A DNA stretch of 64,000 nt from an uncultured Clostridia bacterium (GTDB taxonomy: Bacteria; Bacillota; Clostridia; TANB77; CAG-508): positions 42,303-106,302 of the forward strand of contig CALXLP010000001.1 in assembly GCA_944389225.1 (NCBI GenBank). Direction: 5' to 3'. The stretch's first letter is position 1. Each line of letters starts with the position of its first letter. Under the pieces are notes generated by a model. That model had not been told where the DNA came from. It worked only from the letters and a program-made list of their open reading frames with translations, and did not search any database. Positions 3,040-51,800 of the stretch are shown one piece after another. The position numbers and the translations under genes are program-made.

Positions 3040-3837
3040 TTATTGTTGAACTGTACTCATACTACTTGGATCTATTCCATATTGTTGATATAACCATGAC
3101 ATATAATCAAATGGTGTTAATGTTTCAGGTAATCCATAATCAATTCCATTTGTTTCTACTCTAATAGATGTAATAACTGGTGGATTTACAGGTGTGCTTA
3201 CTTCTGTGTTTCCTGTTGTTTCTGCATCATCTGCTGCTTTTACTTCAACACCTTCTATTTGATGTACAATATCCATACCTTCTATTACTTTACCAAAAGA
3301 AGTATATTGTCCATTTAATCCTGTATTTTCTGCTGTCATAATAAAGAATTGTGAACTTCCAGAGTTATATGATTCTTCTGTTAATGATGAAGAATAACTG
3401 GTGTAATCAGATCTTGCCATTGCAACAACACCTTCTTCAAATTGTAATTTATTATCTACACCATTTGCTATAAATTCACCTTTTATTGTATATTCTGTAT
3501 CATCACCATCATCTCTTAAATCACTTGTGGTTGCTAATCCTGTTCCATCTCCATTTTTGTCTCCACCTTGAATCATAAAGTCTTTTACAATTCTGTGAAA
3601 TGTTAATCCATCATAAAATCCTCTATTGGCTAATGCTATGAAGTTTGCTACTGTTTCTGGAGCATATTCTGGATATAATTCAAATTTAATCGTTCCAAAA
3701 TTTTCAACTTCCATTGTTGCAACAGGTCTTGTAACCTCCATTGTTGCATTTCTATAATATCCATAACTGATAATTCCTATTAAAACAATTAAAATAATTA
3801 GAGCAACTATCCATATAATATTTTTAAATTTTCCCAT
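3040..3837 (-). CDS. membrane-anchored cyclophilin-type peptidyl-prolyl cis-trans isomerase
   Basis: N-terminal TM helix. Cyclophilin motifs FHRIVKDFMIQGGD and SQFFI. Confidence 0.85.
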   Translation of the reverse strand: MGKFKNIIWIVALIILIVLIGIISYGYYRNATMEVTRPVATMEVENFGTIKFELYPEYAPETVANFIALANRGFYDGLTFHRIVKDFMIQGGDKNGDGTGLATTSDLRDDGDDTEYTIKGEFIANGVDNKLQFEEGVVAMARSDYTSYSSSLTEESYNSGSSQFFIMTAENTGLNGQYTSFGKVIEGMDIVHQIEGVEVKAADDAETTGNTEVSTPVNPPVITSIRVETNGIDYGLPETLTPFDYMSWLYQQYGIDPSSMSTVQQ

Positions 3838-3912: not shown

Positions 3913-4986
3913 TTAAATCATATTGTCAAAAACAAATTGTTCTTGCATTCTTTTTAATGATTGTTTAATTGTTCTTGCTCTTACTTCTCCAATACCATCT
4001 ACTTCATCTAAGCTTTCAATATCTGCTGCTAATATATGTTGAAAAGATTTGAAAGAATCTACTAAGTTTTCAACAATATTGTTTGGCATTCTTGGCACTT
4101 TACTCAAAATTCGATATCCTTTTGGATAAACTGCAACTTCATCATAATTATCAAAATATTCATATCCTAATAATTTTGCAATAGAAGACTCTTTTAACAA
4201 TTCTTCATATTCTAAATCTTTTAACTCTTCTAATATTTTATCAGAAGATTTTTTCTTTTTAACCACATAATCTTTTATAATCAAACTTTCTTCTTTTTCA
4301 AGTCCCCCAATTAATTCATCTAGTTGCATTTTTACTAGTCTTCCGTCATCTCCAAGCTCATAAATCTGTCTTTGTATCTCTTCTACAATTCGCATAACCA
4401 TTTCTGCTCTTTGAATGGCAAGTACAACATTTTGTAATGTTACTATATCATTAAATTCATATTCATTCAATATATTTAATTTATTATCAAATACTTTTTT
4501 ATATTTTTCCAAAGTTTGTATTGCTTGATTTGCTTTATTTAATACAACATCTGTATCTTCCAAAACATATCGATCATTTCCTTTAAAAACTGTAATGATA
4601 TTTCTTCTTTGCGAGATACTAATGACTAATTCTCCTGTTTGTTTTGCTGTTCTTTCTGCTGTTCTATGTCTTGTTCCTGTTTCTGTTGTTTGGATTTCAT
4701 GTTCTGGAATTAATTGGGCATTGGCATATAAGATTTTTTTCATGTCACCACTTAATACAATGGCACCATCCATTTTGGCCAATTCATATAATTTTGATGA
4801 TGTATAGTCCTCATTAATAACAAAACCACCATCAACAATTTCTTTTATCACTTCATTATTGTCTGTAATTAATAATAATGCTCCTGTCTTTGCTCTTAAT
4901 ATATTTTCCAGACCATCTCTTATCGGTGTTCCTGGAGCTATTAATTTTAAAACAGATGTAATATTATCTTCTTTTACCTTTTTCAA
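3913..4986 (-). CDS. disA: DNA integrity scanning protein DisA (diadenylate cyclase)
   Basis: 357 aa. N-terminal DAC domain pattern (LIAPGTPIRDGLENILRAKTGALLLI, DGAIVL) and a C-terminal HhH. The conserved radA-disA pairing is present. Confidence 0.88.
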   Translation of the reverse strand: MKKVKEDNITSVLKLIAPGTPIRDGLENILRAKTGALLLITDNNEVIKEIVDGGFVINEDYTSSKLYELAKMDGAIVLSGDMKKILYANAQLIPEHEIQTTETGTRHRTAERTAKQTGELVISISQRRNIITVFKGNDRYVLEDTDVVLNKANQAIQTLEKYKKVFDNKLNILNEYEFNDIVTLQNVVLAIQRAEMVMRIVEEIQRQIYELGDDGRLVKMQLDELIGGLEKEESLIIKDYVVKKKKSSDKILEELKDLEYEELLKESSIAKLLGYEYFDNYDEVAVYPKGYRILSKVPRMPNNIVENLVDSFKSFQHILAADIESLDEVDGIGEVRARTIKQSLKRMQEQFVFDNMI

Positions 4987-6401: not shown

Positions 6402-6445
6402 TGTCCATTTGGGTCTATTGGGGACGTTTCTTTTTGGACATTTTT
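6402..6445 (+). repeat. REP-like repeat copy (left flank of the RAYT gene)
   Basis: TGTCCATTTGGGTCTATTGGGGACGTTTCTTTTTGGACATTTT. It lies between the RAYT stop and the radA RBS and is inverted relative to the copy at 7387-7420. Confidence 0.85.
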
Positions 6446-6472
6446 ATTAATCTTTTTTTCAATCTCTCATTT

Positions 6473-7267
6473 CTATTTTTTAGAATTTTTAGTTTTCATA
6501 ACTCTTTCAATTACTTTTCTATTAACTCCTAATATTCTTGAAAGTTGTGCTTTTGATGTTCCTTTTATATTTTTTAATTGATATATTTTTTCATCTCTTA
6601 CTTTTTTATTATATGTACGAATTTCCCTTACATCTTTAATGTTTAGTACTTCCTGTATTTTTTTCTTTGTTTGTTCATCTGTTAATTTATCAATAATTTC
6701 ATATTCTACTTCTTCATTTATTGTTTTTTTCTCATAACTGTGAAAAATAATAAAATTTTCTATTGCTTCTTTTTGTGTTTGACCAAACATTGGTAAAATC
6801 CATTCTCTATTTATAATTTTTTCACCATAAATAAATTCAAGATAACTACTCCATTTATATTGTTCTATAGTTGAAATCCCAGATTTTACTGGATTTTGAT
6901 GGATATATCTACATAAACGGCACATATATTCTTTGGTTTCAACATTTTTACTTAAAAATCTATTTTGAAATAAATGACCTTCTTTATCATACTTTTTTGA
7001 AAAATAACTTGAATATGATATTGCTATACTTTGCATTATTTTAGAAATTTGGTTATTTTTATCATAAATAACTAAATGTACATGATTGGTCATTAAACAA
7101 TATGCATATATTTTATATTGATATTTTTCCTTTGTCATTTTCATTGTTTTTAGAAATTTTTTATAATCTTGTTCATCATAAAATATATCTTGCCTATCAT
7201 TTCCTCTTAAAATAATATGATATACTTTTGTATTACTAATTTTTCTTGCTACACGGGGCATATTCAT
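6473..7267 (-). CDS. REP-associated tyrosine transposase (RAYT) / IS200-like Y1 HUH transposase with C-terminal HTH
   Basis: HUH motif in LMTNHVHLVI and a catalytic Tyr motif in CRYIHQNPVK. The spacing and N-terminal YHIILRGN block are typical of PF01797-type proteins. The C-terminal AQLSRILGVNRKVIERV looks like an HTH. The gene is flanked by inverted repeat copies. Confidence 0.8.
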   Translation of the reverse strand: MNMPRVARKISNTKVYHIILRGNDRQDIFYDEQDYKKFLKTMKMTKEKYQYKIYAYCLMTNHVHLVIYDKNNQISKIMQSIAISYSSYFSKKYDKEGHLFQNRFLSKNVETKEYMCRLCRYIHQNPVKSGISTIEQYKWSSYLEFIYGEKIINREWILPMFGQTQKEAIENFIIFHSYEKKTINEEVEYEIIDKLTDEQTKKKIQEVLNIKDVREIRTYNKKVRDEKIYQLKNIKGTSKAQLSRILGVNRKVIERVMKTKNSKK

Positions 7268-7386
7268 CTCTCCTTACATTATTTTTATGCCCCTAAAACA
7301 AAAAAAGTATAGCATATTTCTATATTTTTTGCCATACTTTTCTTCTAATTTTTAAATAGCTATTCTAAAAACATTTCAATTTAAAC

Positions 7387-7420
7387 AAAATGTCCAAAAA
7401 GAAACGTCCCCAATTGTCCC
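7387..7420 (-). repeat. REP-like repeat copy (right flank of the RAYT gene)
   Basis: AAAATGTCCAAAAAGAAACGTCCCCAATTGTCCC, about 120 nt upstream of the RAYT start. Confidence 0.9.
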
Positions 7421-9846: not shown

Positions 9847-10897
<1,051 letters not shown>

Positions 10898-10968
10898 TTA
10901 CAATTATATTACAATGTTGTTATTTTTTCAACCATTTTTTGTAAAAAAGATATTCTATTTACTTAATT

Positions 10969-11550
10969 TTATATATTTATATAGTTTTTTATCACATCAT
11001 ATACTTTATGTGTTGGTAATCCAAGAGCTGATGTATAATTTCCTTCTATTTTTTCTACATGCACACAAAATTCATTTTGAATTCCATATGCAGCAGCCTT
11101 GTCCATGGCATTTCCTGTATCTAACCATCTTTCAATTTCTTCATCTGATATATCTTTTAGATATACTTTTACTGCATCATATGTTCTATACTCTTTTAAT
11201 TCTCCATTTTCTTCTATTAAAATACTTAATCCTGTTATAATTTCATGCACTTTGTCTCCTGTAATTAATTCTTTTATCATTTCTTTTGCATGTTTTCTAT
11301 TTTTTGGCTTTCCATATATTTTGCCATTTTTTGTAACAATGGTATCAGAACCAATGATAATTCTATCACCTTCAGTCCTGTCATATACATTTTTTGCTTT
11401 TGTATAAGCTATTTGTGTCACTTGTTCTTCTACGGATAATTTATCATTTAAAGTTTCTTCTTGATTACTCACTATAACTTCAAATTTAGGAACAATTAAT
11501 GCTAGTAATTCTTTTCTTCTTGGAGATTGAGATGCTAATATAATTTTCAT
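10969..11550 (-). CDS. maf: Maf-like nucleoside triphosphate pyrophosphatase
   Basis: MKIILASQSPRRKELL start and the family-typical GAYGIQ-like block (AAAYGIQ). Confidence 0.85.
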   Translation of the reverse strand: MKIILASQSPRRKELLALIVPKFEVIVSNQEETLNDKLSVEEQVTQIAYTKAKNVYDRTEGDRIIIGSDTIVTKNGKIYGKPKNRKHAKEMIKELITGDKVHEIITGLSILIEENGELKEYRTYDAVKVYLKDISDEEIERWLDTGNAMDKAAAYGIQNEFCVHVEKIEGNYTSALGLPTHKVYDVIKNYINI

Positions 11551-11552
11551 TT

Positions 11553-12035
11553 TTATTCCTCCTTTAGTGGATTTCTTCTATTTCGTAATTGTTGTATCAT
11601 AAAAAACATACAAATTAGAACAATAAAAATCACAATGATTACTTTTTTCCAAAAATGAATATTGGGTATTACAAAAATCACTTTTCCAATAACAACATCT
11701 TTTGTTATTGGATCATCTTGTACATTATTGGCATCACCTTTTGTGATCAATGTATTCTCTTCCATTTTTATTAATCGATGTGTAATTAAACTTTCTTCTT
11801 TTTTATATACAATAATATCTTCTTCTTTTATATCTGAAGTTAGCTGAACAATAACACCATCACCTATTTCAAGTGTTCCTGACATACTTCCTGTAACTAC
11901 TTCTAAAATTGTATAACCAAATAAATTTGTGTATTTCTCACCAGTTACTTTCTTTTGTATGATGCTATATAATAACCATATTATAATGACAAATATCATC
12001 ATATATATTACAATATTTAAAATTTTTTTTGCCAT
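11553..12035 (-). CDS. signal peptidase I, SipW/archaeal-type (S26B)
   Basis: N- and C-terminal TM segments; motifs GSMSGTL, THRLI and GDANNVQD. Confidence 0.75.
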   Translation of the reverse strand: MAKKILNIVIYMMIFVIIIWLLYSIIQKKVTGEKYTNLFGYTILEVVTGSMSGTLEIGDGVIVQLTSDIKEEDIIVYKKEESLITHRLIKMEENTLITKGDANNVQDDPITKDVVIGKVIFVIPNIHFWKKVIIVIFIVLICMFFMIQQLRNRRNPLKEE

Positions 12036-12083
12036 GTATTCTCCTATTTGTTTTATTTTTTGTCTAAATCTTTTAACTCTTTC

Positions 12084-12116
12084 AAAATGTCCAAACAGAA
12101 ACGTCCCAAATTGTCC
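12084..12116 (-). repeat. REP-like repeat copy
   Basis: AAAATGTCCAAACAGAAACGTCCCAAATTGTCC, between the slt stop and the signal peptidase start. Confidence 0.85.
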
Positions 12117-12128
12117 TAAATTGTATCA

Positions 12129-12698
12129 TTATCCATATAACTCATTATATACACCATAGTCTCTTAATATCTTTCTCACATAATTATTGGTTTCTTTATA
12201 TGGTATATTTTCAATATCTGAACCATCTGCTTGTATAATTTGCTTATCTATCCAATTGTTCACAGTTCCTATCCCTGCATTATATGCTGCTAATGCTACT
12301 TCTATGTTTTCATATTGTGTTAATAATGTTGAAAGATATTTTGTTCCAATATTGATATTATTATCAATATCTAATAATTCTTCTACTATATTTTCTGTAT
12401 CAATATCTATCTGATTTTTATTAGCAACATCTATGGCTGTTTCCTTTACAATTTGCATTAGTCCAATTGCTTCTCTATTAGAAACTGCTTCACTGTCAAA
12501 ATTGCTTTCTGCTTTTATCACTGCATATATTAAATTTTCCTCTACATCATATTCCTCTGCATAAACTGATATAATTTCACTATATGTTTTAGGGTATAGT
12601 ATTTTTAATAATTTATCTTTAAACAGAACGAATAGTATGACTACTATGAATATCATAATAGCCGTACCAATTACAATTTTATATTTGTTTTTCAACAA
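12129..12698 (-). CDS. membrane-anchored lytic transglycosylase (SLT domain)
   Basis: N-terminal TM; catalytic ES block (AVIKAESNFDSEAVS), GLMQI and AYNAG. Confidence 0.85.
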   Translation of the reverse strand: MLKNKYKIVIGTAIMIFIVVILFVLFKDKLLKILYPKTYSEIISVYAEEYDVEENLIYAVIKAESNFDSEAVSNREAIGLMQIVKETAIDVANKNQIDIDTENIVEELLDIDNNINIGTKYLSTLLTQYENIEVALAAYNAGIGTVNNWIDKQIIQADGSDIENIPYKETNNYVRKILRDYGVYNELYG

Positions 12699-12756
12699 AG
12701 TTTCCTCTCCTTTTCAATTTTAAAACTCCCTAATATTTCCATTCATTTTTTAGCAA

Positions 12757-12940
12757 TCAATCAATATTATTATTTTTGAATTCATCGACGAATGTGACGT
12801 GAAACGGACGTACAAATTCTTAATTTTAAATAAATGAGGAAGCGCGTTTGTAGCGAGAGGCTCGTTTATTTAAAATTTAGAATTTGTAGTACATGGAACT
12901 AGCCGAGGAAATAATAAAAAAATAATAATATTGATGAATT
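12757..12940. other. about 180-bp nested inverted-repeat element with a GC-rich core
   Basis: Outer arms AATCAATATTATTATTTTT / AAAAATAATAATATTGATG. Inner arms of about 30 nt, GTACAAATTCTTAATTTTAAATAAATGAG / CTCGTTTATTTAAAATTTAGAATTTGTAGTAC, surround a GC-rich loop. It sits between the polA stop and the slt start. Confidence 0.5.
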
Positions 12941-12963
12941 ACACTAAAAAAATATCATAAATT

Positions 12964-15663
12964 TTATTTACAATCATACCAATTTTTTGCTTCTGATATT
13001 TCTGCAACAAGTGGTATTTTTAATTGTATTGCAGACTCCATTTCCCTTTTCATGATATCTTTTACTTCTTCTTTTTCACTTTCCGGTGCTTCAATCATCA
13101 TTTCATCATGTACTTGTAAAATAATTTTAGCTTTTAACTCTCTCTTTTTCAATTCCTTATTTACATTAATCATCGCTATTTTCATAATATCAGCAGCTGT
13201 CCCTTGAATCGGTGTATTCATTGCCACCCTATTTCCAAATTGTCTTACCATATAGTTTTTAGAATTCAACTCAGGAACATATCTTCTTCTATGGAATAAA
13301 GTTTCAACATATCCTTTTTCCTTTGTCTTTTCAATAATATTCTCCATAAATTCTTTTATTCCTGCATACTCTGTTAAATATTCATCTATATATTGTTTTG
13401 CTTTTTTTCTAGAAATTCCTAGTTGTTCTGCTAATCCAAAATCACTAATTCCATAGACAATTCCAAAGTTTACAGCTTTTGCATTACTTCTTTGCTCTTT
13501 GGTTACTTCATCAATTGGTGTTTTGAAAACTTTTGAAGCTGCTTGTTTATGAATATCTTCATTATTTTTAAAAGCTTCTATCATGTGCTTGTCTTCTGAA
13601 ATATGTGCCAATACTCTTAATTCTATTTGTGAATAGTCTGCATCAATATAGACTTTTCCCTCTTCTGGTTTAAATACTTTTCTTACTCTTTTTCCCAATT
13701 CAAACCTAGTAGGAATATTTTGCAAATTAGGCTCTGTTGAACTAATTCTTCCTGTTGCTGTTATGGTTTGATGGAAAAAGGAATGAATTCTTTTGGTTTT
13801 CGGATTAATAAATGGTTTTAATCCTTCTACATATGTAGAATTTAATTTCATTAACTGTCTATATTCTAATATCTTTCCAATAATTGGATCTTCTCTTTTT
13901 AGTTTTTCTAGAACATCTACATCTGTAGAATATCCGTTTTTTGTTTTCTTAATAACTGGTAATTTCATTTTTTCAAAAAGAATTTCTCCTAATTGTTTTG
14001 TAGAATTAATATTAAATTCTTCTCCTGCCATTTCATGAATTACCTTTGTTAAAACTTCAATTTGTGAAGTCAATTCTTCTCCAAATGCACTTAGTTCTTG
14101 TTCATCGACATACATTCCATTCCATTGCATGCTAGATAAAACTTCTACTGTTGGCATATCAATATTGGTATATAAGTCAAAGCTATTAGTTTCTTTTAAT
14201 TTTTGTAAAATCATTGTATTTATTTTTTCAATAACATATGCATACAAAGTATATTTTTCCGAATCTTTTTTATCATTTTGAGTATCATTTTCTTCAAATA
14301 AAGTCATTTGTTTTTGATTATCTTCTTCCCCTATATATTCCTCTATATCCAATTCTAAATATTGCATTGCTAAATTTTTAAGGTCTAATTTATTATTTGT
14401 TGGATTCAAAATATATGCTCCAATAGATATATCATTTTCAATTCCTTCTAATGTAATGTCTACTTGTTTTAATAAAATATATATTTTTGTTAAATTGATG
14501 CTTGTCTTTTTTATATTTTCATCTTCAAAAATTTCTTTTAATTGTGACATTTCTTCTTGGTTTAGTTTTATATAGTAGGCTTCTTGAGTATCTGAATTAT
14601 ATAAACTCATTCCTGTTATTTTTTCTTTTATGATATTATCTGGATTCTCCTCTTTTTCTGTTTGTAAATAGAAGATTATCTTTTTTTGTGATTTTACTAT
14701 ATCCATAACCTCTTCTATTGATTTTTCAACTGTTTTAAATTCTACTTTATAGGTTTCTTCTTGACTATCCTTCTCGCCTGTTAAATGGAATCTTTCAATA
14801 TATCGATTAAAATTTAATTCTTTAAATAATTTTAATACTTTTTCCTTATCCCATTCTTCTACTTTAAATTGTTCTAAAGTATCTTCGATTGGAACTTCTA
14901 GATTGATGGTTCCTAATGTTTTAGATAATTCTGCTAATTCTTTATTATCTTTAATCTTTTCTCTTTGCTTTCCTTTTAAATCATCTTCATTTTTTTCTAT
15001 TTTGTCATATAAATTATCAATAGTTCCATATTTCTGAATTAAAGATAATGCTGTTTTTTCTCCAATCCCAGGTACACCTGGTATATTATCTGAACTATCT
15101 CCTTGTAATCCTTTTACTTCTATCAATTGTTTTGGCTCTATTCCATAAGTTTCCAATATTTTACTTCTATCAAATAAATCGGTTTCTGTTTTTCCACCTT
15201 TTGTTCTAGGAATTCGAATCGTTACATTATCTGTTGCTAATTGGAAAGTATCTCTATCTCCTGATAATATGGTAACATGAAGTCCTTGTTTTTCTCCATA
15301 TCTAGAAAGCGTTCCTAAAACATCATCTGCTTCATAACCTTCTTTTTCCACAATATCAATATTCATAGCTCTTAATATTTCTTTAATTAAAGGCATTTGC
15401 TCTGCCAATTCATCTGGCATTCCTTTTCGATTGGCTTTATATCCTTCATATAATTTATGTCTTGCTGTTGGTGCTTTTAAGTCAAATGCAACAGCCATAT
15501 ATTTAGGATTGGCATCTTCTATTAATTTAAATAAAATTGCTAAAAAACCATATACTGCATTTGTATACTTTCCATCTTTCGTCGTTAGCATTTTACTTCC
15601 CATAATTCCATAAAATGCTCGATTCATGATACTATTTCCATCTATTAAAACAAAATTATCCAT
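12964..15663 (-). CDS. polA: DNA polymerase I
   Basis: 5'-nuclease, inactive-looking exo and Pol A motifs (DYSQIELR, QVHDE). I prefer the start at MDNFVLIDGNS (RBS AAAGGAGG) to the longer track ORF. Confidence 0.95.
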   Translation of the reverse strand: MDNFVLIDGNSIMNRAFYGIMGSKMLTTKDGKYTNAVYGFLAILFKLIEDANPKYMAVAFDLKAPTARHKLYEGYKANRKGMPDELAEQMPLIKEILRAMNIDIVEKEGYEADDVLGTLSRYGEKQGLHVTILSGDRDTFQLATDNVTIRIPRTKGGKTETDLFDRSKILETYGIEPKQLIEVKGLQGDSSDNIPGVPGIGEKTALSLIQKYGTIDNLYDKIEKNEDDLKGKQREKIKDNKELAELSKTLGTINLEVPIEDTLEQFKVEEWDKEKVLKLFKELNFNRYIERFHLTGEKDSQEETYKVEFKTVEKSIEEVMDIVKSQKKIIFYLQTEKEENPDNIIKEKITGMSLYNSDTQEAYYIKLNQEEMSQLKEIFEDENIKKTSINLTKIYILLKQVDITLEGIENDISIGAYILNPTNNKLDLKNLAMQYLELDIEEYIGEEDNQKQMTLFEENDTQNDKKDSEKYTLYAYVIEKINTMILQKLKETNSFDLYTNIDMPTVEVLSSMQWNGMYVDEQELSAFGEELTSQIEVLTKVIHEMAGEEFNINSTKQLGEILFEKMKLPVIKKTKNGYSTDVDVLEKLKREDPIIGKILEYRQLMKLNSTYVEGLKPFINPKTKRIHSFFHQTITATGRISSTEPNLQNIPTRFELGKRVRKVFKPEEGKVYIDADYSQIELRVLAHISEDKHMIEAFKNNEDIHKQAASKVFKTPIDEVTKEQRSNAKAVNFGIVYGISDFGLAEQLGISRKKAKQYIDEYLTEYAGIKEFMENIIEKTKEKGYVETLFHRRRYVPELNSKNYMVRQFGNRVAMNTPIQGTAADIMKIAMINVNKELKKRELKAKIILQVHDEMMIEAPESEKEEVKDIMKREMESAIQLKIPLVAEISEAKNWYDCK

Positions 15664-17173: not shown

Positions 17174-17201
17174 TTTTTTCTCCTTTATTCTTTTTTTGTT
17201 A

Positions 17202-17343
17202 GGGACAATTGGGGACGTTTCTGTTTGGACATTTTTGATATATTTACAATAAATTTGTTTCTAATAAAGACATATAAAATAAAAAAATTATAGTTAACAG
17301 TTTTTACATAAAATGTCCAAACAGAAACGTCCCCAATTGTCCC
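17202..17343. mobile_element. REP doublet (REPIN/MITE-like): two 34-nt repeat copies as perfect terminal inverted repeats
   Basis: 17202-17235 GGGACAATTGGGGACGTTTCTGTTTGGACATTTT is the exact reverse complement of 17310-17343. The spacer between them is 74 nt and AT-rich. The arm orientation matches that of the arms around the RAYT gene. Confidence 0.9.
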
Positions 17344-17347
17344 TTTG

Positions 17348-34470: not shown

Positions 34471-34497
34471 TTAGCACTCTTGTTGTTTGTTTGCTAA
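34471..34497. promoter_or_regulatory. CIRCE-like operator 1
   Basis: TTAGCACTC-N9-GTTTGCTAA compared with the consensus TTAGCACTC-N9-GAGTGCTAA. Confidence 0.7.
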
Positions 34498-34507
34498 CTT
34501 CATATAT

Positions 34508-34547
34508 ATTATACCCCTTTTTAGCACTTGTCAATACATTTTGCTAA
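34508..34547 (-). promoter_or_regulatory. hrcA operon promoter overlapped by CIRCE-like operator 2
   Basis: Minus strand has TTGACA (34534-34529) and a TATAAT/TAATAT region (34513-34508). The operator is TTAGCACTT-N9-TTTTGCTAA at 34521-34547. Confidence 0.6.
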
Positions 34548-34642: not shown

Positions 34643-35998
34643 CTAGATCCGCATTGTTGATTTATATCTACTTCCATTATAGTCAACATAACTTGCTGAA
34701 TTTATATCCTGCCAGCTACCTCCACGATAAATTCTACTACTAGTAGCATAAGCTCCTAATGTCCATTCACTCACATTTCCTCCTAAATCTCTAATCTGAT
34801 TAATATTATCATTAGCATATGACACATTGCCTGTAGTTGTATAAGATCCTTGATTATTATTTCCTATTCCTTTAGCCGTTATTTTTTCTTTATCTGTACT
34901 TCCACTATTTTTTATCCAATTTAACATTGCATCATATTGGCTCAACCAAACCATACTACTTCCTACTGAATTGTTCTTTCCTGTATATTCTTTATGTTTT
35001 GCATATAATCCATACCACATACTTGTTGTATCATTTCTAGCTGTCACTGGCTTTACATTTGCTTTAGATTGTATTGTTCCTTCGCTTCCTTCATCATCTT
35101 CTGTAGCAGTTGACAAACTTGATTCATATCTTCCTATATAAAAACCATCATACCTAGCGACACTATTTATCATTGATTTATACTCTTGTTTTAATCCTTC
35201 TAAAGTCATTCCAACAGTATTATAGTCTTGTGTATTATTATCATATGAAGTTACAATTGCTGGCTCTCTTATTCCTGAATTTTCATTATATACATTGTTT
35301 ACTGTTCCAAAATTTTCTCCTGTACTACTTTCATAGACTTTTCCTACTATCTCATTTGCTGTATTACTATGTTCTGGATTGGTACATTTAACTTCTCCAT
35401 CTATCAGTTCCAAATTACAATTTCCCCCTGCAGTTCTACATTGTGCCATACTATTTATATCATTTACTGGAACCCATACAAACTCACTTCCATCTGGTCC
35501 TCTTACAACTAACCCCGTATCTATAACATTTAATTCATTATCAACAGTAAATCCCTCTGGTATTGTAGCTGTATCATTATTTATATCTCTATAATTATCT
35601 TTAAACGTCTTATCAACTTCAACACCAGCCACTGCATTTTCTTTTATTGCTACATTTCCATCAAAATCTACTACAATTTCATAGCCATCCATGTTTACTG
35701 TTATTGTTTCTTCATCTTCTGCTATTATACTTCCTCCCAAATTTTCTATTTCTGACTTAAAATTTTCTGTATTAAATTTTCCTGTATTATCATAACTTCC
35801 TACAAATGCTATACTGACTTTTTCTTCAGCACTTGATTCTGTCGTTGCTTCACTTGCCTGACTTGCTCTTGTTAGGATTCCATTTTCTCCTGTCAACGTG
35901 GCAATTGTAACTCCTGCCAAAATTAATAAAACAATGATTGTAATTACTAATGCAATCAAGGTAATACCTCTTTGTTTTTTTATTTTTTCTTTTATCAT
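34643..35998 (-). CDS. secreted/anchored protein with a prepilin-like N-terminal segment and a C-terminal FGE-sulfatase (SUMF1-like) domain
   Basis: N-terminus KKQRGITLIALVITIIVLLILAGV is pilin-like but lacks Glu at +5. The C-terminus has GGNVSEWT and YRGGSW, typical of the FGE-sulfatase fold. Confidence 0.65.
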   Translation of the reverse strand: MIKEKIKKQRGITLIALVITIIVLLILAGVTIATLTGENGILTRASQASEATTESSAEEKVSIAFVGSYDNTGKFNTENFKSEIENLGGSIIAEDEETITVNMDGYEIVVDFDGNVAIKENAVAGVEVDKTFKDNYRDINNDTATIPEGFTVDNELNVIDTGLVVRGPDGSEFVWVPVNDINSMAQCRTAGGNCNLELIDGEVKCTNPEHSNTANEIVGKVYESSTGENFGTVNNVYNENSGIREPAIVTSYDNNTQDYNTVGMTLEGLKQEYKSMINSVARYDGFYIGRYESSLSTATEDDEGSEGTIQSKANVKPVTARNDTTSMWYGLYAKHKEYTGKNNSVGSSMVWLSQYDAMLNWIKNSGSTDKEKITAKGIGNNNQGSYTTTGNVSYANDNINQIRDLGGNVSEWTLGAYATSSRIYRGGSWQDINSASYVDYNGSRYKSTMRI

Positions 35999-36030
35999 GC
36001 TTTTGTTTCCTCCTTATATTCTTTTGTGCT

Positions 36031-36221
36031 TTCTTAAAATTAGTTACTCTAAGAAATTTTTCATCTAAATTTTATCAATAAAATACTACAAAGTCAACTG
36101 AAATCGTAAAAAATATATGAAACCAATATATATTTTCTTATAACTATAAAATAGTGAAACTTATTGGTAATAGTAATAAAAAAAGAATAATTTGCTTTCT
36201 TAGAGTAACTAACTATAAGAA
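36031..36221. promoter_or_regulatory. 191-bp segment bounded by a 26-bp inverted repeat and carrying a promoter (candidate invertible switch, or a MITE)
   Basis: 36031-36056 is TTCTTAAAATTAGTTACTCTAAGAAA. The reverse complement of 36196-36221 is TTCTTATAGTTAGTTACTCTAAGAAA. That is 24 of 26 matches, and the inner 17 nt are perfect. The arms are separated by 139 bp. Confidence 0.6.
36069..36097 (-). promoter_or_regulatory. sigma-A-type promoter inside the IR-bounded segment, facing the pilin-like/FGE gene
   Basis: Minus strand: TTGACT (36097-36092), a 17-nt spacer, then TAAAAT (36074-36069). Confidence 0.6.
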
Positions 36222-36245
36222 ATTTTTATTTTTATATATTAATCT

Positions 36246-37088
36246 TTAAATCGCTATTATATATATTATTATCCCAATTGCTTGTATAATAAACAAATTT
36301 AACATATTTGATGTTAATAAATTATTTGTTGCTTCTATAACACCTAACAATTTATCCTCTTCCTTTTTATAATGATTTTGTGCCTCAAAAAATGTAACCA
36401 ATTCAGGAACACTGGTTATCATTCCTAATAAAATACCTAAAATCCATTCTGCCATTTCGAAACTTTTTGATAGATTTTCTAATACGCTTCCTAATGCATC
36501 CCCTATAAAATACAATAAAATACCTGCCATTAAAATATACCCTACATATATAAACGATTGTTTATTGTCATATTTTTCCTTTTCTTCTTGCTTTTTCTCT
36601 CTTTCCTCGATTTTTACATCTTCATCGCTTAAGTATCTTTCATGTATTTTTTTAGAAATCCAGTAAAAAATAACATACATAACAATTAATAAAAATGCTA
36701 TAACCATATTTAATGTATTTTCTAATTTTAATAAGATGATTGGAAAGATAATGGTTATCATTACCAATATATTTTGAATAATAATTCCTTTATTTTTAAT
36801 CACTTTATAATTTTTATTGATAATTAAAGACACACTATATTGAATAAAATTAATGACATTAGAACTGATAATATTATATAAACTTGTTCCCATTAATCCT
36901 TTAAAACTCGATACAGTTACAGTCAATAATTCAGGAATTGAAGTAGCAAATCCCGCAATATTTCCTATCGTTCTGGGTTTTAGTTTTAAATTTTCTGCTA
37001 ACTTTCTTAAAGCTTTGACTAACATATATTTTGAAATCACTACAATGAGTATAGAATATATAAAAAATCTTCCTATTTCTATCAACAT
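36246..37088 (-). CDS. Ca2+/cation antiporter (CaCA/YrbG-like)
   Basis: Two alpha-repeat motifs, GFATSIPELLT and GMITSVPELVT. Roughly 10 TM helices. Confidence 0.8.
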   Translation of the reverse strand: MLIEIGRFFIYSILIVVISKYMLVKALRKLAENLKLKPRTIGNIAGFATSIPELLTVTVSSFKGLMGTSLYNIISSNVINFIQYSVSLIINKNYKVIKNKGIIIQNILVMITIIFPIILLKLENTLNMVIAFLLIVMYVIFYWISKKIHERYLSDEDVKIEEREKKQEEKEKYDNKQSFIYVGYILMAGILLYFIGDALGSVLENLSKSFEMAEWILGILLGMITSVPELVTFFEAQNHYKKEEDKLLGVIEATNNLLTSNMLNLFIIQAIGIIIYIIAI

Positions 37089-37215: not shown

Positions 37216-37683
37216 CTAATAAAATTCTGATACTTTTTTCCTATAATGAATAAAATCTTTTGTCATATATACAGGCTGTACTTTTAGCTTTTTTTCCATA
37301 AATCTTTTTGATGGTTTGTTTGCGTGTCTTATGCAAAATTCCAGCTCTTTATACTTGGTATTTTCTGAAATGTACTTTGCAAATTGACAAATTGCTTCTT
37401 TGCAATAGCCCTTTCTCCGCACCTTTGCAGAAATAAAATAGGAAACTTCCATTACTTTCTTAGGCTTTTTCTCCCCAAGAACCATCCCTACAATTTGATT
37501 TTGCTCATCTAGTATTTTAAAAGCATCATAGTTACAAGAGTCGACACATAATTCCATTAAATCTTGTGCTTCCTCTAAATCTTTACAATAAGCTAACCGA
37601 AAAAATTTTTCAACGCTTGCATCTTGAGCTATCTCTAAATATGCATTTGCATCATTTAAATTAAATCTTTCCAACCGTATCAT
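37216..37683 (-). CDS. GNAT-family N-acetyltransferase
   Basis: 155 aa with an acetyl-CoA-binding-like block VRRKGYCKEAI. Confidence 0.65.
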   Translation of the reverse strand: MIRLERFNLNDANAYLEIAQDASVEKFFRLAYCKDLEEAQDLMELCVDSCNYDAFKILDEQNQIVGMVLGEKKPKKVMEVSYFISAKVRRKGYCKEAICQFAKYISENTKYKELEFCIRHANKPSKRFMEKKLKVQPVYMTKDFIHYRKKVSEFY

Positions 37684-38104: not shown

Positions 38105-38137
38105 AATGTCCAAAAAGAAACGTCCCAAATGGACATT
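38103..38137 (-). repeat. REP-like repeat copy (variant with flipped terminal module)
   Basis: AAAATGTCCAAAAAGAAACGTCCCAAATGGACATT. It overlaps the DUF1653 stop codon by 2 nt and ends 7 nt before the serS RBS. Confidence 0.85.
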
Positions 38138-46081: not shown

Positions 46082-46369
46082 CTATGAAAAATATGTAAAA
46101 TAAAGACTTGCCCGTTTCTCTTTATCAACTTCATAAATGATAATATAATTATTCACTTTCATTTTTCGTACATTTTTTGTCTTATCTTTCCAATCTTCTA
46201 GTTTTACATATTTTTCAGGTAAATAGCTTAAATTTGAAATATAATTTAAAATTCTATTTACTATTTTCTTTGCTGTACTTTTCTCTTTAAAATAATATTC
46301 TATATAAAAATGAATATTTTGTAAATCATTACGAGCCTTTGGAGACCAAATAATTTTATAAATCTTCAC
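46082..46369 (-). CDS. type II toxin, RelE/ParE family
   Basis: A GTG start overlaps the antitoxin stop. Reads VKIYKIIWSPKARNDLQNI...YIIIYEV, a typical ParE/RelE pattern. Confidence 0.7.
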   Translation of the reverse strand: MKIYKIIWSPKARNDLQNIHFYIEYYFKEKSTAKKIVNRILNYISNLSYLPEKYVKLEDWKDKTKNVRKMKVNNYIIIYEVDKEKRASLYFTYFS

Positions 46370-46715
46370 TAAGATGATACTTCGCCTCCATTTCTGCCAC
46401 CACTTCTTCCATTGGAATTCCCTTTCCTTCTTTAATCTCTTGCATTGCTTCTTCAATTTTTTTTAAAATATCTTTTTGAAATTCCTCAAAAGTAGCATAA
46501 TGTTTATCAAAATGTTCTGATACCAATCTATCAATTCTCTCTTCCTCTGTTTCTTCTAATCCTTTTGTTAATTCTTCATATGCTTCATCACTTAAAATGA
46601 CCAAATCATTTGTTCCATTCTTTGTGATATACATTGGTTCTTTTGTTTCATGACATATTTTTGAAATTTCATTATAATTATTTCTCAAATCTGCACATGG
46701 TCTAATTAAAGCCAT
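46356..46715 (-). CDS. type II antitoxin, Phd/YefM family
   Basis: MALIRPCADLRNNYNEISKICHETKEPMYITKNGTNDLVILS. AAGGAGG RBS upstream of the ATG at 46715. Confidence 0.75.
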   Translation of the reverse strand: MALIRPCADLRNNYNEISKICHETKEPMYITKNGTNDLVILSDEAYEELTKGLEETEEERIDRLVSEHFDKHYATFEEFQKDILKKIEEAMQEIKEGKGIPMEEVVAEMEAKYHLSEDL

Positions 46716-46979
46716 AAAAGCACCTCCTTGTTTTATAGGCAAATTATATCAAAATTATGATATATTTGCAAGTTATTTTTATAATATTCCATATTTTATA
46801 ATTTTTTTGAAGTTCTAAAATGTTTTTTGAATTCATTAATTATCTTTTTTCTAATGGTCAGGCACTTTTATTGTTCTCAAACATATAATTTGTTATGCGA
46901 GATTTTAATGTACATTGAAATCTATTTTATTACTCATACATTTAAAATTTTCTTATTTTATATATTTGGAGGTGCCTAT

Positions 46980-47693
46980 ATGTTTTCTGCACTTTGTATG
47001 TCTGGTATTTTAGGATTTATTGAATTTCTAAAATCCTCTGTATTTTTAGTAGGATATATTTCTAGTAGTAATATATTCCCTGAACCATTAACATCTGAAG
47101 AAGAAAAAATGTATTTAAAACAAATGAAAAGCGGTGATGAAGAAGCAAGAAACATTTTAATTGAAAGAAATCTAAGATTGGTCGCCCATATTAGCAAAAA
47201 ATATTCAACTACAAATGTTGAACAAGATGATTTAATTTCAATTGGCACCATTGGTTTAATCAAAGGAATCAATAGTTTTAACATTGACAAAGGATCTAAA
47301 CTTTCTACATATGTTTCCAGATGCATTGATAACGAAATATTAATGCACTTAAGAGCCACAAAAAAATTAGGTGCTGAAGTCTATTTAAATGAACCCATTG
47401 GAAAAGACAAAGACGATAACGTCATTACTTTACAAGAAATATTAGAAAATGATGAAAGAAACATCGAAGATACAGTTGATATTAAAATGAAAATTAAATT
47501 ATTATATGAAAAAATGAAGTCTATTTTAAAGGATAGAGAAAAAACGATTTTGGAACTTCGTTTTGGTTTAGGTGGTCATAAACCAAAAACACAACATGAA
47601 ATTGCCAAAATGATGGGTATTTCTCGTTCCTATGTTTCTAGAATTGAAACCAAAGCAATTGGAAAATTGTCTAAAGAATTTAAAAATTTGTAA
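46980..47693 (+). CDS. sigK: sporulation sigma factor SigK (pro-sigma form, uninterrupted)
   Basis: Hydrophobic pro-sequence, then FPEPLTSEEEKMYL, LIERNLRLVAHISKK, DLISIGTIGLIK, NEILMHLRATKK and GISRSYVSRIE. GGAGGTG RBS before ATG 46980. Confidence 0.8.
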   Translation: MFSALCMSGILGFIEFLKSSVFLVGYISSSNIFPEPLTSEEEKMYLKQMKSGDEEARNILIERNLRLVAHISKKYSTTNVEQDDLISIGTIGLIKGINSFNIDKGSKLSTYVSRCIDNEILMHLRATKKLGAEVYLNEPIGKDKDDNVITLQEILENDERNIEDTVDIKMKIKLLYEKMKSILKDREKTILELRFGLGGHKPKTQHEIAKMMGISRSYVSRIETKAIGKLSKEFKNL

Positions 47694-48891: not shown

Positions 48892-51800
48892 CTATTCTGT
48901 AACTTTATATTCTAATGATAGTTCACTTGTTGCTAATTCTTCCGTTACTGTCCATTCAAATCCTACATTTTCAATATATCTAATACCATCTACACCATTT
49001 TTAAGATCACTTATTATATAAGTTTTTGTTGTTTCTCCTATTTTTACTTGTACAGTATTTCCATCTAATTTTCTTGTCTCTGATATTTTTACTGTTGCTG
49101 GTAATTCTTCTTTAATATAATGTGTAGTTGTTTCTCTTTGTGTTTCGTTAAATATTTGATCAAATATACTTTGTAAACTTTCTGCTGTTCCGTCTTTTGC
49201 CTCTTTATATTTATCTGTTGATGATGCTATATTGTTTTTAAGGATTCTTCGTGCATAACTTTGTTCACTTTCCCAATGATAGTAATTTCCATCATTTGCT
49301 CTGATACAATTATCTGCACCGCAACCAGTCTTTGAATTTTCAATTTCTGTTACTTCTTTTGATAGTGTTATTTCTCTATCTCCCCATCTTCTCTCTTTTA
49401 CTGTTATTGTATATGTTAGTGTTAAAGATCCGTTTGCTGGTACTGTAACATTTTCCCAAGTTACTGTACCCCATCTGTCATATCCTCTATTAGAAATATT
49501 ACTAATTCTAACATCATCTGTAGAACCTGCATAGTCATTAACTGTAACAGTTCCATTCTTATCACTATTATTAGTTAGTGTAATAGTATATTTTACTTCA
49601 TCTCCACTTGAAGCTTTATTTTCTGTAGTTTCTTCTCCATTTATTGTATAAGATTTTGTTGCTGTTATATTAGCAGTACTCATATTTGGACATAATGTAT
49701 ATAATGCTGCTTTTTGAGATTCCTCATTATCTCTTACTGTATATAATTTATCAATTCCTAATCCTATTGAATAAACTGTAGCTTTTTGTCTTAAAGCTTC
49801 TGCTTGAGATATAATATTATCCTCTGTATTTTGGCTATAATCTCCATATTTTGTTCCCCAATCATCTTTATTGCCATTGTATATATAATAAGGTTGTGTT
49901 GGAGCTCCGTCTCCTAAGAATACTACTACTGGTGTTCCATTTTTCAATTTTTCACTATTCTTTGTTATTAATGAATTTACTTCTTTTAATGCTTCATTAA
50001 TATTTGTTCCACCATCTGCACCTAACCATGTTATTGTAGATTTTACATCGCTCTTATCATCATATCCTTTTGCTATAAATTTTGTATTAGCTTTTGAAGA
50101 GAATGTTATTAATGATACCGTTGAATCTGTTCTCTTTTCGTCTGGGAATAATTTATCTATCATATTATTAGCTGCTGTTTTCATATTAGACAATCTGCTA
50201 TAATTATTCATACTACCAGATACGTCTAAGACTAGAATTAAGTCGATTGGCTTTTCTTGTTTTGCTATTGAATATACTTTTTTAATAACTTTTGTTGTTG
50301 CTGTTGGGGTATCACCATTTACATTTGCTGTATTAATAATATCCTTACCACATGTTTGCTCTGTTATTTTTACTTTGAAAACAAGTCTTAATTCTTCATC
50401 TTGCTTTGTTAATTCTCCTGTATATATAACTTTCTTTTCATCACCATCTACAACATAATGATCTCTATCTGAAACTGATTTTCCATTTACTGTTATACTG
50501 TTTGGTACATATTCTGTTCCAGTTGGAATCCTATCACTAATATTTACTGGTGTTGTTACATTCGTTAAATTCTTAACTGTGATTGTATATGTTAATTCTT
50601 CTCCAAATTCTGCTTCAACTTTATCTACTGATTTTGTAGCTTTTGTTTGTGGTTTTTCTACTTCATATCCACCATCATCTGGTGTATTTGCTCCATTTAC
50701 AATTGCTATATTATTTGCTATTTGATTACTATATGTTCCTTCTTCAAGAGGATCTACTGTTACATCAAAAGTAATTGTTAATGTTTTTCCAGCTACTAAT
50801 TCATAAGCAGTTAAACTTACTACTCTATTATTAATTGTAACATCTTCTACTGGTGTTCCATCATTTAAAGTTGCTACTAATGAGTTATCTACATATGTTA
50901 CATCATCTGGTATTTTATCTGTAACATTAATGATATCAGATTCTGTTCCATTATTTTCAACTGTAATTGTATATCTGATTGTATCTCCTTCATGTGCTTT
51001 TCTTTCTGTTGTTTGACCTAATGAGCATTCTACGATTGCACTAGATTTTGATGCTGTAATATGTGGTTTAACAACATCATATTCACCTGTTGTATCTGTT
51101 GTTGTTTCTCCATTTACTGTTACTACGTTTGCATCAATTGTTTTACCATATACACCTTCTGGTAATGAATCTACTTGTACTGTAAATTTAATAATTAATG
51201 TTTTGTGTGCTTCTAATGTATAGTCTGATAACATTACTTTTCCATTATTTACTGCAATACCTGAAACTGCACTTCCATCAACTGTTGCCTCTACAGTTCC
51301 TTGTACATATGTTAATCCAGATTTGATTGTATCTTCAACTGTTACTTTTCCTGATGTTTCTCCTGAATTAGTTACTTTTATTTCATATTGAATTTGATCT
51401 CCTTCATGCACAATTGTTCCTGTTGTTTGATTCTTACTACATGATACAATTGAACTTGATTTTTCAGTAGTAATAATAGGTTTTACTACTTCATAATCAC
51501 CTTTTTCGTCTTCTTTATTATTACCATCTACTACAGCAATATTTTTACCAATTACTTTGTTTGATACACCTTCTGGCAATGTATTTACTTGTACTGTAAA
51601 TTCAATTGTCAATGTTCCACCTGTTGTTAATGTATAATTTTCTAATTTTACAACCCCATCTTCTACTTTTGCACTTGTTATTTCTGTTCCTGCAAAGTTT
51701 GCTTTTAAAGTTCCATCAACATATGATAGTCCTTCTTTAATTGGGTCTGTAATATTAATTTGTTTTTCCACAGTTCCATCATTTTTTACTGTAATTGTAT

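Follow-up and report, generated by a model that had tools for sequence, protein, structure and literature searches.

In C. difficile, invertible segments of 150 to 200 bp lie upstream of cell-surface genes in the cwpV and flagellar (flgB) switches, and RecV, a single tyrosine recombinase that is not linked to them, serves several switches, the repeats of which differ from one switch to the next. cwpV is regulated via a terminator in its leader and not via promoter orientation. The core sites of tyrosine recombinases consist of inverted half-sites around a short asymmetric spacer that sets the polarity of the site, as in loxP (13-8-13), FRT (13-8-13), and dif (11-6-11); inverted sites lead to inversion, and the spacers of the two partner sites must be identical. 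The fimS, hyxS, and ipuS switches of E. coli, which are acted on by the tyrosine recombinases FimB, FimE, FimX, and IpuA, resemble the locus described here in that a short promoter segment is placed between inverted repeats before a gene for a surface structure. Recombinases of the fim type can act on switches that are not adjacent to them, and specificity is determined by the half-site sequence (PMC6083910). Inverton groups linked to tyrosine recombinases have also been reported from Clostridia (PMC11892184). An invertible promoter upstream of a surface gene is a well-known kind of element and is not conceptually new.

Here, we analyzed a stretch of 64 kb from an uncultured Clostridia bacterium (hereafter the window, meaning this whole stretch), in which a sequence-only reading had proposed an invertible promoter upstream of a pilin-like gene. 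Our results make it very probable that the element is a site-specific promoter inverton that phase-varies a pilin-like surface protein of 451 aa and is operated by a recombinase acting in trans.

The coordinates of the locus are collected in the table. The inverted repeat had been described as 26 nt long, spanning 36031-36221 with 24 of 26 positions matching; the repeat itself was confirmed, but its extent was not, since each arm is one base longer per side and measures 27 nt, with 25 of 27 positions complementary (93%). The inner 17-mer, TTAGTTACTCTAAGAAA, is perfect, as had been claimed, and within the window it is present at the two arm positions only. The 139 nt between the two arms hold no open reading frame. 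They do contain the best promoter match of the region, TTGACT-17-TGnTAAAAT, in which an extended -10 element, TGATAAAAT (36077-36069), places TG ahead of TAAAAT (10 of 12 matches). In the window, this predicted promoter is aimed at the gene of the 451-aa protein, and both the sequence match and the direction given earlier were borne out, as was the position of the gene-proximal arm inside the predicted 5' untranslated region (UTR). The fixed stretch of the 5' UTR (GCACAAAAGAA...) is also present in a sister lineage that lacks the switch.

Table. Features of the invertible promoter locus, in window coordinates
Feature	Position	Strand	Details
CaCA (Na_Ca_ex) gene, upstream of the switch	36246..37088	-	3' end faces the promoter in the flipped core (L002, L003, L007)
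Gene-distal recombination site (arm)	36196..36222	.	gene-sense strand: TTTCTTATAG-TTAGTTA-CTCTAAGAAA
Parts of the gene-distal arm			outer half-site 36213-36222; 7-nt spacer 36206-36212; inner half-site 36196-36205
Invertible AT-rich core, 139 nt	36057..36195	.	exact reverse complement in L002 and L003
Sigma-70-type promoter (predicted) within the core	36069..36097	-	-35 TTGACT 36097-36092; 17-nt spacer; -10 TAAAAT 36074-36069
Gene-proximal recombination site (arm)	36030..36056	.	gene-sense strand: TTTCTTAGAG-TAACTAA-TTTTAAGAAA
Parts of the gene-proximal arm			inner half-site 36047-36056; spacer 36040-36046; degenerate outer half-site 36030-36039
Fixed part of the 5' UTR	35999..36029	-	RBS GGAGG at 36013-36009
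Controlled gene, 451-aa protein	34643..35998	-	class-III-signal/pilin-like N-terminus, KKQRG followed by ITLIALVITIIVLLILAGV

The repeat is unlikely to have arisen by chance. In 200 simulated windows of 64 kb, generated with a first-order Markov model and searched for perfect 17-nt inverted repeats with a loop of 30 to 600 nt, such a repeat was seen in 1.5% of windows (mean, 0.03 per window). Apart from the inverton arms, the real window contains perfect repeats of this kind at just two places, namely in an unrelated doublet of the REP-like type at 17.2 kb and in a region of nested hairpins at 12.8 kb. The latter region (12746-12949) lies between an SLT-domain gene and polA, where arms of 37 nt (78%) enclose arms of 28 nt (93%) around a GC-richer center, and it has no Rfam match.

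To determine the orientation of the core in related genomes, we compared the window with contigs from public assemblies whose encoded 451-aa protein is identical. In two of them, L002 (ERZ28614918) and L003 (ERZ24773556), the core is exactly reverse-complemented, with arms and flanks unchanged. Over flanks of 2.0 and 2.6 kb, these contigs match the window at 99.95 to 100% identity, and the genomes are therefore near-isogenic and differ by the inversion. In L001/L006 and L004, the core is oriented as in the window (referred to as ON, with the opposite orientation as OFF), so that 2 of 5 assemblies of this lineage are flipped. A second lineage, in which the protein is 95% identical and the DNA approximately 92 to 95% identical, likewise contains both states, with L012 ON and L007, L040, L041, and L042 OFF (4 of 5 OFF). 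The flipped orientation, which the sequence-only reading had suggested looking for, is thus found in public assemblies, with both states in each of two lineages, and the inversion itself is a direct observation. The activity of the promoter and the effect of ON and OFF on expression are predictions from the sequence.

Further contigs end at the switch. L005, L013 (a 197-kb NCBI MAG contig), and L014 stop precisely where the gene-proximal arm meets the core, and L023, a contig from a JGI metagenome, ends exactly at an arm. In the JGI metagenome scan, only two contigs were relevant (L020 and L023), the other eight matches being chance matches in unrelated DNA. An assembly graph breaks where the reads hold both continuations, and contig ends at the arms are the signature expected of mixed orientations among the reads, which points to heterogeneity within one sample. 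Logan assemblies presumably use a k of 31, which is longer than the perfect repeat; the repeat alone should therefore not break Logan contigs.

The same considerations bear on the reading that the element is a static terminator, attenuator, or operator palindrome and that the opposite orientations are assembly artifacts of the inverted repeat. Each arm can indeed fold as a hairpin, and short-read assemblers can mis-orient segments that lie between long inverted repeats. However, the perfect repeat here is just 17 nt (27 nt with mismatches), which we take to be shorter than the k-mers of the assemblers involved, so that the junction k-mers are unique. The OFF state was recovered six times and the ON state four times, by different pipelines and in different studies, and an Rfam search of the inverton region matched no family, which argues against a static RNA element. 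We therefore regard a static palindrome as very improbable.

Equally, the orientation differences might reflect independent insertions of a MITE or REPIN that landed upstream of the gene. Units with the same arms do occur at different chromosomal positions in different species, and the window does carry a genuine repeat family of the REP/RAYT type. Against this, both orientations are found at exactly the same position with the arm-specific mismatches in place, the unit invariably accompanies one gene family, and a sister lineage without the switch has approximately 100 nt of unrelated sequence at this point rather than an empty site. Many copies with target-site duplications had been named beforehand as the finding that would point to a MITE; instead, there is a single copy of the unit in 64 kb, no target-site duplication flanks it (ATAAAAA on one side, GCACAAA on the other), and the mismatches are fixed to the flanks. 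As judged from these sequence features, a mobile element appears largely refuted, and we consider it extremely unlikely. The REP/RAYT-like system of the window consists of an ORF for a 264-aa IS200-type Y1 transposase (6473-7267, PF01797) with 40-nt inverted repeats on either side (6411-7420) and of a REP sequence of approximately 35 nt (TTGGGGACGTTTCTnTTTGGACA), which forms an intergenic inverted doublet with perfect 35-nt arms at 17201-17345 and occurs as singletons at 12088-12110 and 38107-38129. The REP sequence is unrelated to the inverton arms.

The inverton reading is further informed by the anatomy of the arms. Each arm is itself a dyad, in which 10-nt half-sites, TTTCTTAGAG and CTCTAAGAAA, are arranged around the asymmetric 7-nt spacer TTAGTTA (10-7-10). 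This dyad is perfect in five species, and the arms of the window are imperfect versions of it, with one and two mismatches, located in the outer half-sites. The dyad form of each arm explains why the pair also registers as a direct repeat (83%). The half-sites are symmetric, so the spacer alone gives the site its polarity, and since the two spacers are inverted relative to each other, the expected outcome is inversion and not deletion. The mismatches of the outer half-sites stay with the flanks in both orientations, and in the lineage of L012 and L007 the final base (A or T) of the inner half-site travels with the core. Together, the fixed outer mismatches and the mobile inner base place the exchange inside the 16 nt TTAGTTACTCTAAGAA, which include the spacer; the end-points of the inversion are thereby known to within 16 nt. 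When the dyad motif was searched for at up to 4 mismatches in the window and the fetched loci (approximately 410 kb), it was found at invertons only, and a scan of viral contigs for the dyad gave no matches.

A 10-7-10 site with an asymmetric overlap region corresponds to the classical core site of tyrosine recombinases (loxP, FRT, dif, lambda core). To look for the enzyme, Pfam profiles were run on essentially all window ORFs of at least 100 aa on the coding strands, apart from the 1766-aa ORF within 48892-55799, and on the neighbors of the switches in four related loci (L016 to L019). No match to PF00589 or PF00239 was found among the window ORFs scanned, in line with the earlier statement that no recombinase gene is adjacent, and no recombinase gene was found in the 4 to 8 kb around the four related loci. 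The sole recombinase-like protein of the window is the Y1 transposase of the unrelated REP system. On the basis of the site architecture, the recombinase is most likely a tyrosine (Int/Xer-type) enzyme that is encoded elsewhere in the genome.

It could also be that the inversion is real but is carried out by a serine invertase of the Hin/Gin/Mpi-like kind, Hin being a serine DNA invertase (PMC3798978). We consider this rather unlikely, while giving it some weight. Many promoter invertons are driven by serine recombinases; Mpi of Bacteroides is reportedly one of these enzymes, and Hin sites are likewise imperfect dyads, of approximately 26 bp. The sites of invertases are, however, of the form 12-2-12, and the odd, asymmetric 7-bp center between 10-bp half-sites argues against an enzyme of this class. 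In the second inverton of L018, 3 of the 7 central bases differ and the half-sites are kept, a pattern that fits the overlap region of a tyrosine recombinase better than a 2-bp crossover. Moreover, the invertase gene is usually adjacent in systems of the Hin/Gin type, whereas no invertase gene adjoins the switch or lies inside it here. A tyrosine recombinase thus remains the preferred candidate.

To explore how widespread the switch is, we scanned one genome per species for the exact pattern of the arm. Besides the L012 contig, the same arm was found in four other uncultured Clostridia MAGs (L016 to L019), in which the arms bracket an AT-rich core of 140 to 190 nt. Across seven invertons from five species, strong conservation within the core is limited to the block TTGACw-17-TGnTAwwAT, and the rest can barely be aligned; the sites and the promoter sequence are thus what is conserved. 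Every related unit lies directly upstream of a gene with the N-terminus GITLIALVITIIVLLILAGV, and the products behind these switches begin ...KGITLIALVITIIVLLILAGV(T/A)IATLTG(E/D)NGIL. In the representative assemblies of the four MAGs, all five switches have the promoter aimed away from the gene. Two of these belong to L018, a chicken-gut MAG (Chicken_20_mag_115), which carries tandem invertons at 3189-3395 and 4755-4961, both OFF in the assembly, each preceding a separate pilin-like gene; the two genes encode 405 aa and 505 aa, respectively, the longer product having a GLUG motif. The half-sites of the two L018 invertons are identical, and the spacers are TCTGATA at 3189-3395 and TTAGTTA at 4755-4961, each matched within its own pair. 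Such a pattern would be expected if partner sites need identical spacers, and it would prevent recombination between the neighboring switches.

The switch is absent from other relatives. In a sister lineage represented by eleven independent contigs (L008 and L030 to L039), the gene order is the same (the CaCA gene, a gene 84% identical to that of the 451-aa protein, and hrcA), and there is no switch; approximately 100 nt of unrelated sequence are found where the inverton sits elsewhere. The 125-nt intergenic region of this lineage contains no recognizable sigma-70 promoter. No inverton was found upstream of the more distant homologs P0015, P0056, and P0075.

On the minus strand of the window, the genes follow in the order GNAT acetyltransferase (37216-37683), CaCA, a 247-nt intergenic region, the ORF of the 451-aa protein, and hrcA-grpE-dnaK; the identification of the upstream gene as a Na_Ca_ex (CaCA) protein agrees with the earlier description. 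No terminator was detected by a scan between the gene of the 451-aa protein and hrcA. The region at 34471-34534 holds a promoter for hrcA itself, TTGACA-17-TAATAT, together with a CIRCE-like operator, TTAGCACTC-N9-GTTTGCTAA, with 2 mismatches, and since hrcA has its own promoter and operator, the switch is dedicated to the gene of the 451-aa protein. Elsewhere in the window, the MreB ORF (9847-10653, minus strand) has a TTG start and is matched by the Pfam profile only from position 63, so that it may be truncated at the N-terminus, frameshifted, or called from the wrong start, and an ORF for a ParE-family toxin (46082-46456) adjoins a divergent factor of the sigma-70 family (46827-47693).

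In the mechanism that we propose, a recombinase encoded in trans would bind the four half-sites, pair the two sites, and exchange strands within the asymmetric 7-bp spacer. In the ON state, as seen in the window, transcription is predicted to start near 36062, approximately 5 nt before the gene-proximal site. The transcript would pass through this site, which may form a weak 5' UTR hairpin that lacks a U-tract, and would then reach the ribosome-binding site and the ATG at 35998. When the core is OFF, the promoter would instead be directed at the CaCA 3' end; the gene-distal site, then lying between A5 and T5, would resemble a bidirectional terminator hairpin, which might halt the outward transcript as well as read-through from the CaCA gene. 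The distal site in the OFF orientation comprises a hairpin of 16 to 18 bp followed by a U-run in both directions, and a terminator scan calls it in L007 and L018. The OFF hairpin of the window type, with a computed energy of approximately -11 kcal/mol, was not called by the scan because it has too few G-C pairs. The distal arm may be regarded as a putative terminator in the OFF state.

The geometry of the OFF state, with the flipped promoter aimed at the 3' end of the CaCA gene as had been predicted, is present in L002, L003, and L007. Because the promoter converges on this gene, the switch could be a toggle with two outputs, in which the flipped promoter deliberately represses the CaCA antiporter gene by producing antisense RNA. 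An outward transcript in the OFF state would, however, meet the hairpin and then UUUUUAUUUUU within approximately 40 nt. Furthermore, the gene on the far side varies, encoding DNA polymerase III alpha in L016, an aminotransferase in L017, a pseudouridine synthase in L019, and, at the second L018 switch, an unannotated 405-aa protein with the same pilin-like N-terminus. With a different far-side gene at each related locus, a conserved second target is not apparent, and we judge a deliberate antisense output to be unlikely. ON/OFF control of the pilin-like gene is the reading that we carry forward.

We next turned to the protein under control. It had been described as pilin-like with an FGE domain; the resemblance holds, but the Pfam matches are below threshold, at 18.2 bits against a cutoff of 21.2 for N_methyl (PF07963) and 18.3 against 23.3 for FGE-sulfatase. 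Position +5 is Ala and not Glu, and the C-terminal RGGSW region resembles FGE-sulfatase and DGR variable domains. Profile and sequence searches against the PDB gave weak pilin and FGE matches only, with E values of 0.03 or higher for pilin. The AlphaFold model has a mean pLDDT of 67 and a poor C-terminal half, and a Foldseek search of the PDB returned nothing at an E value of 0.001 or below, leaving the FGE/C-type-lectin fold without structural confirmation. The protein belongs to an unannotated family of more than 7,900 relatives from uncultured Clostridia, with several paralogs per genome. Both its surface location and its function are putative. Among the members of its 90% cluster, P0133 has an alternative Y/S-rich C-terminus ending in ...GSRLTLYIK, like the DGR variable regions of the wider family, and P0128 has an unrelated N-terminal extension that may derive from a chimeric contig. 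The window also holds a putative sortase-dependent surface cluster on the minus strand (48892-55799), which includes the 1766-aa ORF, a sortase (54208-54795, PF04203), and a 334-aa protein (54795-55799) with a C-terminal LPITG and hydrophobic tail.

Some relatives of this protein are targets of DGRs. L011 (GCA_037069205.1) contains a complete DGR cassette at 10001-13602, comprising the target P0056, which is a 52%-identical homolog, a MutS_I-like ORF, bAvd, and RVT_1. Its VR (11307-11433) and TR (13476-13602) differ at 18 positions, 17 of them at TR adenines, and there is no inverton upstream of the target. In L017 (MAG E08__bin232, CALXJN010000090.1; 961-3443), an inverton in the OFF state lies directly upstream of a pilin-like DGR target, which is followed by a MutS_I-like ORF and bAvd; here, 29 of 33 mismatches between VR (2191-2337) and TR (3297-3443) are at TR adenines, and the 1 kb of contig that remains yielded no RT. 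L009 was considered as a further cassette and rejected, its downstream ORFs consisting of 78-nt leucine-rich-type repeats with no VR/TR pair. The gene of the window was likewise rejected as an active DGR target. Neither a TR-like repeat nor an RT is present in the 64 kb, and 16 members of the cluster share a conserved C-terminus, so that the gene belongs to a DGR-target family without itself diversifying.

More tentatively, the lineage may run a recombinase regulon, in which invertible promoters have one 10-7-10 site in common and are addressed by differing 7-bp spacers that would prevent recombination between switches, with each switch gating one member of a multigene family of pilin-like proteins with lectin-type C-terminal domains, some of them hypermutated by DGRs. 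We regard this proposal as possible, somewhat short of an even chance. If it is true, ON/OFF phase variation would be layered on retroelement-driven diversification of the ligand domain of the same surface appendage. Members of the family combine a conserved pilin-like N-terminus with C-terminal binding domains that can be swapped, some of which are diversified by DGRs, and they are switched ON and OFF. This switching, together with the prevalence of the OFF state in assemblies, points to selection by immunity or phages on a surface structure. The family also provides a natural setting in which the interplay of phase variation and DGR hypermutation can be studied. The locus provides a sequence-defined phase-variation switch in an uncultured gut Clostridia lineage of human-type and chicken metagenomes, and the consensus of its recombination site offers a means of locating the remainder of the regulon and, via co-occurrence, the recombinase.

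In a limited literature search, the repeat motif, the host lineage, and the target family appeared to be undescribed, and the motif was not found. Compared with fim-type switches, which have inverted repeats of 7 to 9 bp with separate flanking half-sites, each arm here is a complete 27-bp 10-7-10 dyad; the fim-type recombinase genes are adjacent, whereas none was found here in the scanned ORFs of the 64 kb, and the host belongs to an uncultured, low-GC Clostridia lineage. Relative to loxP, FRT, and dif, the site has a 10-7-10 layout and an unrelated sequence, and it serves promoter inversion rather than the resolution of plasmids or chromosomes. The RecV switches of C. difficile share with the present switch a host of the class Clostridia, but the switches described here have a strict consensus site in common and carry the promoter itself. 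The invertons of Bacteroides capsular polysaccharide loci and those of the PhaseFinder type from the gut are similar in their shared repeat motif, in their embedded conserved promoter, and in the presence of several loci per genome that control surface structures; the present family differs from the Bacteroides invertons in its host lineage, its repeat motif, and its targets, which are pilin-like proteins of the DGR-type lectin kind.
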